Assembly (NCBI GenBank): GCA_000004695.1
Contig: CM000151.3
Coordinates: forward strand, 8,224,001-8,288,000
Length of the DNA: 64,000 nt
Source of the DNA: Dictyostelium discoideum
Lineage: Eukaryota
Direction: 5' to 3'
Below the pieces are notes generated by a model. That model made no database searches, had not been told where the DNA came from, and was given only the letters and a program-made list of their open reading frames with translations. The translations under genes were made by a program, and so were the position numbers. This document shows positions 19,811 to 22,908 of this stretch, one piece after another; positions within the stretch are counted from its first letter, which is position 1, and each line of letters starts with the position of its first letter.

Positions 19811-20666
19811 CAACTTGTAAATTAATTTACATCTATTGTAAACATTATATTTATTTGGAAACACTCACTCTTTACAAATAATGATAAAAAATGATCTACT
19901 CCCATTAATTAAAGATAAAATCAAACATAATGATCACATAGAAATTGATCATTTTTCCATTAAAGATCTTTTTTTAAAATTATCAAAAAAACAACCACCA
20001 CAAGAAGAAACTTTAATAGAAAATAATAATAATATTAATAATAATAATAAAAATAAATATAAAGATGAAGACTATTTAGAAATTATTGAATTATTAATGA
20101 AATATAGAAGAGATGAATTTGAAATTACTGATTTAATTGTGATGGCTAAATTATAATTGAATATGGTTCATTAACTAATAATTATTAGTTAATGAACCAT
20201 ATTCAATTATAATTTATCCAACAACATTTGAATTTGCAATTAAATGTTTAAATTTAGAAACAATTAAAGAACTAGTAAATTTAGAATCAATAAATTTTAA
20301 AAATTATGGTATTAAATTAATTAGTGAAGAATTTAAAAGAAAATCAGCACGTAGAAAAACTCCTAAAACTACAATCGCTGAATACATTTTTAGTAATCCA
20401 TCATTATATTCAATACCACCATTGTCATTAATAAATAATCAAAAACAACAAGAGCCGTCAACAAATAAAAAACTAAAATTATCTGAATCGAATTTAAATA
20501 AAAAGAACAATATTAATAACAGTGATAATAGTGATAATAGTGACGAAGGAAGTGAAAATGATGAGGAAGATTATGAAAATGAAAATGATATTGATAGTGA
20601 TAATTGTGATAATAATGAAGGATGTGAAAATGATGAAGAAGATGAAGAAAACGAAGATATTGATAC

Positions 20667-20754
<88 letters not shown>

Positions 20755-21729
20755 AAACAACAACAAAAACAACAAATACAACTACTACAAGTAAAAAATG
20801 TTAATAAACGACGAGAATTTCTTAATGGTTTTGATATACCATTAACTTTTAATGATTCATCCAGTTCACTAAAAACCTTACTTTATTTAAGTGCAATGAG
20901 AGAAGGAGATGTTGATAAAATCAAAATGTATGATGGTGCTTTTAGTGCAAGATTTAGATTGGATGTTTCAGGATTTCATTATTTCAAACTACCAAAAGAA
21001 AAAGAAGTTTTAATGAAAGTTTGGAATTATTTTAATGAACACTCTTTTAAACAGATTGGTAATAATTATGAAATTCTCATAAAATTCTTCTCAAGTGTAA
21101 CAGATGTAATACCACCTTTAGATTTGAAAATTAGTAAACTTCAAGATTTCATGATGGGGGGATTAAGTTTAATGTTATTTAAATCATTACTTAAAAATAA
21201 TTTAAATGTATTTCAATTATTATTTAATAGTTTTGATAACTTTAATTTTGGAACTGGAGAACTAGGTCAAATGAGAGATTTTATTAATAGAGAAAATGTT
21301 TTATGTTGTAAACTGAAGGAACTTGATAATAACTATATCAACAAATCAATCAAATCAATTGAAATGGTTGTGGAAAAGTTTAAAAAACCCATTGATAAAC
21401 CAATAAAGGATCGAGTGGAATCATATAGCATCATTATAAATTATTTATATGATCAGTTAATTAGATTTAAAGGTATATCAGTCGATCAATTAGAATATAT
21501 TAGATCAATTATTCCTCAACAATTATTTACATTTAAATTGGATGTCTATCGTATCTTTTTCCATCTCAATATCAGATCTCCAAAATTATCAAAATACATA
21601 CTCTCTGGGCCTAAAATTAAAATGTTTAATCAAAGACGTCGAAATGATTCTGCTTTCTACAATTATTTAAAACAATATTTAAATTTATATTTATTCACAT
21701 ATGATTATATTTTGGGTAGAGATAATGCA

Positions 21730-21764
<35 letters not shown>

Positions 21765-22908
21765 GTACATAACTCAATTCGATACAATATTAAAAGAATT
21801 AATTAAACAATTATCACATGATATTTGTACAAACCTTAGTAATAGAGATGAGATTGTTGATGGTAAAGATAGAGATTTCTTTAAGCATTCATTAAATGCA
21901 GATTTAAAATTCAGTTTAGATATTGGTAGAAAAGATTTATTTTGGGAATTATTAGATTGGATTGAACAATATATGAATAAAAATGAAATTTTAATGAAGC
22001 ATCAAGTTTATCAATTCAATTCACCATATGAATCATTATTACCAACTGGCATAATATTTTCAAATTTAAAAATAATAGAATTACCACCACCAAAAACAAC
22101 AGTAACAACAGTAACGACATCAACAATTGAAAGTAGAATTTTAAAAATTGATAATTTTGAAAAACCAATACCAAATGAATCATCAGTTAAAATTAATTGG
22201 AATTCAGATAAATTAATTGAACCATTTAAACCAATTTCAAAACCTATAAATTCATTTAACTTCCAACAAGATGTCATACAGTCAATTTGTAGAGTAATGA
22301 ATGTAAATGAAATTCAAAGATTTATACAACACAATTTCTTTGTATCAAATTTCCACATTTTAATTTATTCAAGTGCATTATATAATAATAGAGATGATAT
22401 AATGTCATTCCTATTAAATAATTATAATATCAAACTCAATGGATTTCCAACTTTCTCCAAGGCAGACAATCAACATTCACAATATTTAGAATGTAAATCC
22501 ATCTTTGAAAATCATTTTGAAAAAGTAAAGAATATTTCAAAATTAAAATTAGAATGGTGTGAAAGTAGAGATTTACAATTCCCATTGGTTTTATTAAATG
22601 CTTTTGTTGTATACCTTTGTAACGATCGTAATTTCTCAACCTATAGTGAATTCATTCAAAATGATAATTTAGAAATTAGAAATAAAGCAATTAAAGAAAT
22701 AATTAAAATATTAAAGTATCACTATGAAGATGATGAGGAAGAATATAATTTAGATGAGAATTTTGCATCTATAATAAAAAATCAAAATCATAAAGTTTCA
22801 ATCATTCAACCAATTATTGAACAACCAGATACTCAATTATACTTTAAATCAGTTTTAGATCATGTTACATTAAAAATAAAAAAGGAAAGAAAAATCTGTG
22901 GCGCTTAA
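19811..22908 (+). pseudogene. Rearranged/decayed tandem-family copy: 5' end inverted, internal palindromic duplication, frameshift, and loss of the conserved C-terminal ~70 codons
   Basis: 19811-19858 is the reverse complement of family codons ('ccaaataaatataatgtttacaatagatgtaaatt'), followed directly by forward-oriented sequence. ORF 19881-20156 ends in a stop. A perfect 38-nt palindrome lies at 20163-20200 ('atggttcattaactaataattattagttaatgaaccat'). The 828-aa ORF 20422-22908 ends 'KERKICGA*' without the 'HPIYKYHLTWL' tail. Remnants of that tail ('gaaaatcatttaactttgttat') lie in the spacer at ~22975 and ~23125. Confidence 0.7.

Follow-up and report, generated by a model that had tools for sequence, protein, structure and literature searches.

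The window analysed here, a stretch of 64,000 nucleotides with a G+C content of 22%, belongs to chromosome 2 of Dictyostelium discoideum AX4. Matching its open reading frames to AX4 proteins identified DDB_G0277585 as paralog A (100% match) and DDB_G0277653 as paralog B (98.7% match) of a same-strand array of about nine paralogs, which encode uncharacterised, weakly ankyrin-like proteins of 1,200–1,400 aa. We mapped the array by using the coding sequence of paralog C as query against the whole window (Table 1). The only Pfam match of the family is a borderline one between paralog C and Ank_2 (28.6 bits with a cut-off of 27.3, residues 136–208), and its sole mention in the literature is an I-TASSER guess for DDB_G0277585. 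Three copies in the AX4 array are disabled, namely Z, A' and D, and the last of these is the subject of the present analysis.

Table 1. Copies of the tandem array and features of copy D, in window coordinates.
Feature	Positions	Strand	Basis or remark
Z, decayed copy	167–2674	array strand	paralog C mapping
A	4651–8523	array strand	paralog C mapping
A', decayed 5' fragment copy	10081–10563	array strand	paralog C mapping
B	11037–14765	array strand	paralog C mapping
C	15430–19617	array strand	paralog C mapping
D, flagged copy	19824–22908	array strand	paralog C mapping
E	23429–27616	array strand	paralog C mapping
F	28136–32299	array strand	paralog C mapping
G	33035–37279	array strand	paralog C mapping
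Intergenic spacer after gene C, flanking the 5' breakpoint of D on the left	19799–19823	.	collinear with L001
Inverted patch 1, 35 nt	19824–19858	-	reverse complement of family codons P38–F49 (CCAAATAAATATAATGTTTACAATAGATGTAAATT)
D1, forward coding remnant (..NTHSLQIMIKNDLLPLIK...ITDLIVMA)	19859–20146	+	paralog identity and translation
Perfect zero-spacer palindrome, 70 nt	20147–20216	.	centre 20181|20182, 35 nt on each side
Inverted patch 2, left palindrome arm	20147–20181	-	reverse complement of 20182–20216
D2, open frame LLVNEPY...KIKKERKICGA*	20182–22908	+	908 codons without a stop; +1 relative to D1
3' lesion	22899–23088	+	~234 nt of coding sequence missing, 190 nt of spacer-like DNA instead
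Relic of the last ~57 nt of family coding sequence, with a 1-nt deletion	23089–23145	+	paralog C alignment

Inverted patches and the 3' end of copy D

Comparison with the other copies supports the view that both odd segments of D are inverted copies of family coding sequence. With the paralog C coding sequence as query, no other family match in the array lies on the minus strand, and all six intact copies are collinear and uninverted at both sites.

At the 5' end, patch 1 aligns without a mismatch (35/35) to three paralogs (A, B and E) and to an orthologous gene from a sister lineage described below, in each case on the minus strand, and control searches for reverse-only and complement-only matches reached at most 9 nt, as compared with 35 nt. 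The inversion had previously been drawn as 48 nt long. The 35 nt of patch 1 bear this out, but the remaining part, 19811–19823, is intergenic in the wild-strain locus L001. There the whole left flank of the breakpoint aligns collinearly with positions 11831–11858 (ctgactaacatctaaatttgcaaattaa), in the spacer downstream of gene C, and is followed by about 240 bp of further spacer and then by an intact gene start. The gene after C in L001 was considered as an orthologue of D and set aside as unproven, its 5' end matching C best; we used this locus for the spacer breakpoint only.

The sister-lineage orthologue serves as a proxy for the ancestral 5' end. It reads ...GAA CCAAAT AAATATAATGTTTACAATAGATGTAA ATTTGG AAACACTC..., and the corresponding part of AX4 reads spacer...GTAAATT, followed by the reverse complement of (CCAAAT...GTAAATT) and then by AAACACTC. 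Relative to the orthologue, D has lost the upstream, promoter-proximal spacer and codons 1–37 (coding positions 1–111), and codons 38–49 are inverted. The right junction of the patch falls inside a natural 6-nt inverted repeat, CCAAAT/ATTTGG, of which the ATTTGG copy (19853–19858, the last 6 nt of the patch) is common to the forward sequence and constitutes the junction microhomology; microhomology at the left junction is at most 2 nt. The forward remnant D1, which begins directly after the patch, is 84–95% identical to paralog coding positions ~138–470. It contains an internal ATG at 19881, and its reading runs into a TAA at 20154–20156.

This stop lies within the second scar, about 290 bp downstream of patch 1. 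A perfect palindrome of 38 nt had been noticed at 20163–20200; it is indeed perfect, but it is merely the core of one that extends over 70 nt, and the arms reach 47 nt if complementarity of 91% is allowed. Simulating the window 100 times with an order-2 Markov model gave a longest zero-spacer arm of 16 nt (mean 10.2). Apart from this palindrome, arms in the window itself do not exceed 13 nt, and the two of that length are low-complexity; family DNA of three other strains (about 82 kb) has none longer than 15 nt. The left arm, as had been proposed, is the reverse complement of codons LLVNEPYSIIIY, an inverted copy of the LLVNEPY codons. An alignment of six paralogs and the orthologue indicates what was replaced: after ATGGC, 31 ancestral nucleotides (AACAAGTACATGTTCTCCAGATGTTATTAGA; codons ..TSTCSPDVIR) have been swapped for 35, which results in a frameshift of +4 nt and TAA stops at 20154–20156 and 20179–20181. 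Patch 2 matches the right arm of D itself at 35/35 positions, including a D-specific G>A change, and the orthologue at 34/35. Since the copied arm carries this D-specific change, the palindrome was copied from D itself after D had diverged. Reverse-only and complement-only controls gave at most 11 nt, as compared with 24 nt exact (34/35 overall) for the reverse complement, and the return junction at the palindrome centre shows 0–1 nt of microhomology. The disrupted region corresponds to residues 136–208 of paralog C, which match Ank_2; a Pfam search with the fragments of D returned no Ank_2 match.

The 3' end carries a third lesion. Coding homology to the orthologue runs through ...AAAATCTGT and stops at 22898, the last codons of D2 read into spacer-derived sequence, and about 78 C-terminal codons are missing, in agreement with the earlier report that D lacks the conserved C-terminus. 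The 190 nt found in their place are homologous, in direct orientation, to positions 27706–27885 of the spacer between E and F. Only the final ~57 nt of the coding sequence survive beyond them, 86% identical to positions 4133–4188 of the paralog C coding sequence, and this relic may be D's own 3' end.

Ancestral state and coding capacity of D

The closest relative of D was found by walking the flanks of an A-like match in "D. cf. discoideum" (GCA_054859205.1), which led to an intact gene of 1,171 aa at L006 19002–22517. Several observations bear on its relationship to D: (i) Within the window it matches D best, with 83% nucleotide identity over 3.2 kb and 78% amino acid identity to D2. (ii) The two share the short central region 'DIDTQ..NVNK.REFLNG.DIPLTFND' and the motif 'KIKKERKIC', both of which are absent from B and C. 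(iii) The gene is followed by an E/F-like gene, as is D. By sequence comparison we assign it as the orthologue of D, in a diverged lineage (83% nucleotide identity) and, as its upstream neighbours differ, with partial synteny. The protein of D is 78% identical to the orthologue and 67–69% identical to B and C; D is an old lineage, with its frame open throughout.

Searches elsewhere were less productive. Homology searches with D did not retrieve an orthologue of D, nor did they retrieve C, E, F or G, the proteins of these four being absent from the collection searched, and exact look-up in public assemblies gave no record for the 91-aa and 828-aa ORFs of D or for P0001. In strain ACTFIR, the locus L004 ends about 9 kb short of the expected position of D, and L005 is a separate family cluster.

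The orthologue also changes how the state of D is to be read. Because the short middle of D is common to the intact orthologue, it is ancestral and not a product of decay, and D2 has kept 908 codons open, so that the word "decayed" in the earlier note does not suit this copy. The accompanying statement that D loses frame applies to the single +4 shift at the palindrome but not to the sequence that follows. Over 20182–22908, stops number 77 and 165 in the two other forward frames and 109 in the reverse-strand frame that we checked. A stop would be created by 6.8% of the possible point substitutions in D2. We calculate from this figure that a stop-free stretch of 908 codons allows, at P > 0.05, for fewer than about 44 neutral substitutions (~1.6% divergence). 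Either D was knocked out recently or selection still acts on part of it. Given both the retained frame and the intact orthologue in the sister lineage, D appears to be a very young, lineage-specific loss. The ratio dN/dS was uninformative as a pseudogene test: it is 0.8–1.3 for D and 0.6–1.05 for intact paralogs (1.05 for B and C), and because the whole family lies near 1, it cannot separate a pseudogene from a gene.

Two rival readings concern the structure of D and its disablement. Perfect palindromes and inverted junctions are classic artefacts of libraries and amplification, and a chimeric clone or mis-join could have produced those in the AX4 reference, a possibility that the earlier note had itself raised. 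However, exact look-up of the paralog C protein led us to a separately deposited assembly of different contig structure (GCA_054883475.1, contig of 4.89 Mb) whose alignment to the window over 24 kb shows 4 gap openings and 0 mismatches. Within window positions 19600–22900, both scars included, the two do not differ at any base, and the identical palindrome lies at L002 14718–14787. Holland et al. 2025 (PMC12745789) report de novo assemblies from Nanopore and Illumina data for nine wild isolates and the laboratory strain AX2-214, and GCA_054883475.1 is probably their AX2-214 genome. If so, the structure predates the split between AX2 and AX3-AX4. An assembly error thus fails as a refutation of the structure and is very unlikely. 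The same assembly provides an argument that D is still a working gene, starting at ATG 19881 with the palindrome inside an intron, as it carries an annotated gene of 952 aa at exactly 19881–22908; the intact 908-codon frame would also fit continued function of a truncated product. The only GT..AG solution that yields 952 aa, however, requires one intron at 20139–20257 with a GTGATG donor and another of 50 nt at 20275–20324, around an exon of 17 nt. Both introns would cut sequence that is coding in 6/6 intact paralogs and in the orthologue, and such a gene would still be short of 37 codons at the N-terminus, of the C-terminal domain and of the promoter-proximal spacer. The 952-aa model looks like the work of a gene predictor patching a frameshift, and we consider a functional D improbable.

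No single GT..AG intron restores a family-like protein either; the two solutions that leave the frame open do so at the cost of 316 or 367 nt of coding sequence that is conserved. The loss of the start codon and promoter-proximal spacer, the +4 frameshift with TAA codons at 20154 and 20179 and the lost C-terminus agree with the original description of D as a disabled member of the array, and we infer that D is a young pseudogene. In short, D is probably a once intact family gene in the form of its AX4/AX2-lineage allele, which templated rearrangements have recently disabled.

Origin of the scars

Short template-switch mutations have been described by Loytynoja and Goldman 2017 (PMC5453318), with a follow-up in great apes (PMC7954356). 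In their four-point model, a nearby fragment (2→3), in reverse complement, takes the place of the fragment between points 1 and 4 (1→4) while the flanks stay collinear, and a reverse-only control is recommended for calling such events (PMC5453318). In D, both patches are exact reverse complements of local sequence, both have collinear flanks around a replaced 1→4 segment, and the reverse-only controls do not exceed 9–11 nt. A fold-back or template-switch origin, as first suggested from the junctions, is therefore the best explanation of the scars, and a template switch is the best available reading of their mechanism.

According to this reading, DNA synthesis, be it at a replication fork or in the repair of a break, would twice have strayed from its template, the growing strand each time copying about 35 nt of nearby sequence from the complementary strand before returning. 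At the 5' end, the return would have skipped about 400 bp, thereby deleting the promoter-proximal spacer and codons 1–37 and inverting codons 38–49. At the palindrome, 35 nt copied in reverse complement from the adjoining sequence would have taken the place of 31 nt, creating the zero-spacer palindrome, the +4 frameshift and the TAA stops. A third lesion, in forward orientation, would account for the removal of the ~78 C-terminal codons. The palindrome event spans 70 nt and is short-range in the sense of the model; the 5' event involves a jump of ~400 nt across an ancestral spacer known from proxies only. That the two scars lie 290 bp apart in D, with none found elsewhere in the array, hints at a single episode with multiple switches.

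Two observations count against a template switch. The jump of ~400 nt at the 5' end exceeds typical short-range switches, and the palindrome centre has a microhomology of 0–1 nt.

The geometry of the palindrome narrows the choice of mechanism and also gives rise to two further proposals. Since an intrastrand snap-back needs a loop, the lack of a spacer disfavours a simple snap-back, and it favours either an inter-strand switch or the off-centre opening of a closed hairpin end. In V(D)J recombination and in hAT footprints, off-centre opening of a covalently closed hairpin gives zero-spacer palindromes. Repair of a double-strand break could thus have left the scars, through a hairpin-capped end opened off-centre, with a P-nucleotide-like product, or through end joining of the polymerase-theta type with an inverted templated insertion. 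A perfect zero-spacer palindrome with almost no central microhomology is what off-centre opening would produce, and deletions accompany the 5' and 3' lesions. On the other hand, P-type additions are usually far shorter than 35 nt, D has no transposon end or footprint in its vicinity, and strand switching agrees with the inverted 6-nt microhomology of patch 1; we regard break repair as unlikely, and it overlaps with the template switch in that repair synthesis switches templates too. The second proposal concerns what the palindrome might do rather than how it arose: it may have been retained as a useful, pseudogene-borne hairpin RNA that gives rise to small RNAs against the paralogs. As RNA it would form a perfect stem of 33 bp (-51 kcal/mol, z = -13.2), its arm is 34/35 identical to every paralog tested, and it matches the Rfam family MIR774 with 35 bits. 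This match is far below the gathering score of 80 bits, however, the promoter region of D has been deleted, a literature search did not find the arm sequence, and recency alone accounts for the perfect arms. Retention for such a role is highly improbable. Equally doubtful is the chain of events behind it, in which the hairpin would be transcribed, for example by read-through from gene C, and processed by Dictyostelium Dicer-like enzymes into small RNAs acting in trans on the whole family. Were it true, a template switch would at one stroke have made a failing paralog regulate the other family members.

Two other candidates were dismissed. A foldback or MITE-type mobile element does not agree with arms that are both codons of the host gene (LLVNEPYSIIIY), and neither the rest of the window nor 82 kb of related loci contains a second copy of the palindrome. 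A site-specific inversion switch is likewise at odds with arms made of host codons, and an unsystematic look revealed no recombinase gene next to D.

Returning to template switching, the scars of D resemble several described systems in part. With short template switches they share the one-step replacement by a nearby reverse complement between collinear flanks, with creation of a hairpin or inversion of a spacer between inverted repeats; unlike the usual cases, the 5' event adds a deletion of ~400 bp, the palindrome is without a spacer, and the host is an amoebozoan with 22% GC. In quasipalindrome-templated mutation, modelled by Ripley 1982 (summarised in PMC5453318) and exemplified in yeast (PMC8604942), strand switching also inverts a spacer, and patch 1 indeed lies between a natural CCAAAT/ATTTGG pair. 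However, that model needs a prior near-perfect inverted repeat, and the ancestor of D had none at the site of the palindrome.

A different parallel is provided by MMBIR/FoSTeS, in which multiple template switches with microhomologies of 0–6 nt generate clustered deletions and inverted templated insertions over kilobases to megabases. The deletions and inverted templated insertions of D are also clustered, with microhomologies of 0–6 nt, but their scale is tens to hundreds of base pairs; a single event with multiple switches may have produced them. The scars of D are thus a fresh instance of an already known class of copying error. They provide a clean case of short template switching outside animals, yeast and bacteria, in which an ancestral proxy, the product and the junction microhomologies can all be read, and in which a coding gene was knocked out and a long perfect hairpin was made, each most simply in a single step.

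Turnover of the array

Like unprocessed pseudogenes of other tandem families, D lies disabled beside intact copies, in an array with other truncated copies and with a copy number that varies between strains. Unlike old, decayed relics, it has kept a frame of 908 codons, and its orthologue in a sister lineage is intact. The earlier note took the scars to mark the locus as structurally unstable and to reflect ongoing birth and death of array members. The former does not follow, as the scars by themselves show only that D was struck. The latter is real and is supported independently of the scars: Z and A' are decayed in AX4, and the number of A-like copies differs between strains, another strain having four of them together with a DDE_1 transposase gene where AX4 has a single A. 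In D. cf. discoideum, the gene order upstream of D differs from that in AX4.

The case also has a practical side for recent Dictyostelium annotation, in which the 952-aa model probably hides the frameshift behind invented introns. For the family itself, which is fast-evolving and variable in copy number, D adds one dated loss.

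Divergence and copy number of the tandem family

Pairwise dN/dS values across the tandem family, paralogs A–G (window 4651-37279), are high even where both copies compared are intact: 1.05 for B–C, 0.87 for A–B, 0.70 for E–G and 0.57 for E–F. Despite these values, an ORF of 1,240-1,415 codons has been retained in every copy, and the combination of high dN/dS and preserved long ORFs suggests that this tandem family is evolving fast or diversifying. Copy number also varies: four A-like copies are present in a locus from another strain (GCA_054859385.1, L004 874-19122), including a truncated one of 771 aa, compared with the single A in AX4 (window 4532-8654), and a DDE_1 transposase gene is located within the A-like region of that assembly (L004 12944-14338). 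This difference in the A region is between-strain copy-number turnover. Disabled copies, here termed Z and A', are also found in the AX4 window.

Annotation of the intact paralogs and of disabled copy D

The ORFs of paralogs C, E, F and G (window 15430-19617 and 23429-37279) are intact, and the AX2-like assembly carries annotations for them. Neither homology search nor exact look-up identified an AX4 or other protein corresponding to these four in a large protein collection, the same one in which A and B are present; AX4 annotation (e.g., pseudogene flags) or database coverage may be the cause. For D, the deposited 952-aa model (GCA_054883475.1, L002 14452-17479, equivalent to window 19881-22908) could be reproduced only by invoking two introns, of 119 nt and 50 nt, on either side of a 17-nt exon. 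Taken together, the two introns remove conserved coding sequence, and the model is therefore likely to be an annotation artefact.

Terminal-codon relics in the spacers

Several spacers hold short relics of the last codons of the family, CATTTAACTT(G/T)GTTATAA. The derived changes common to the relics starting at 22974, 23120 and 27772 show that these were copied from one another, an exchange that predates the E/F duplication. Their shared origin is relevant to whether D's own 3' end is what survives at 23089-23145.

Disabled copies and last-codon relics in the AX4 window
Feature	Window position	Remarks
Disabled copy Z	167-2674	Several internal deletions, broken ORFs
Last-codon relic	8569-8586	
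Disabled copy A'	10081-10563	5'-only fragment, ~480 bp, just upstream of B
Last-codon relic	22974-22998	Derived GAAAATC, CTTTGTT
Last-codon relic	23120-23144	Derived GAAAATC, CTTTGTT
Last-codon relic	27772-27796	Derived GAAAATC, CTTTGTT
Last-codon relic	32333-32404	

Local changes within D and palindromes elsewhere

Directly to the left of the palindrome junction in D, at window 20138-20141, D reads TGTG, compared with AAAG in B and C and AACA in the intact orthologue from the sister lineage. This four-base cluster brings arm complementarity up to 43/47 and may stem from the same event as the palindrome, whether template switching or heteroduplex repair. Farther downstream, D contains an uninterrupted (CAA)29 encoding polyglutamine (window 20668-20754) where the orthologue has only about four Q, so the repeat has expanded in frame within the AX4 lineage.

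In the family cluster of another strain, a perfect 30-nt palindrome, TATACTTATTAAGTATACTTAATAAGTATA, is present at L005 23570-23599, and a related 24-nt palindrome lies at L005 18112-18135.
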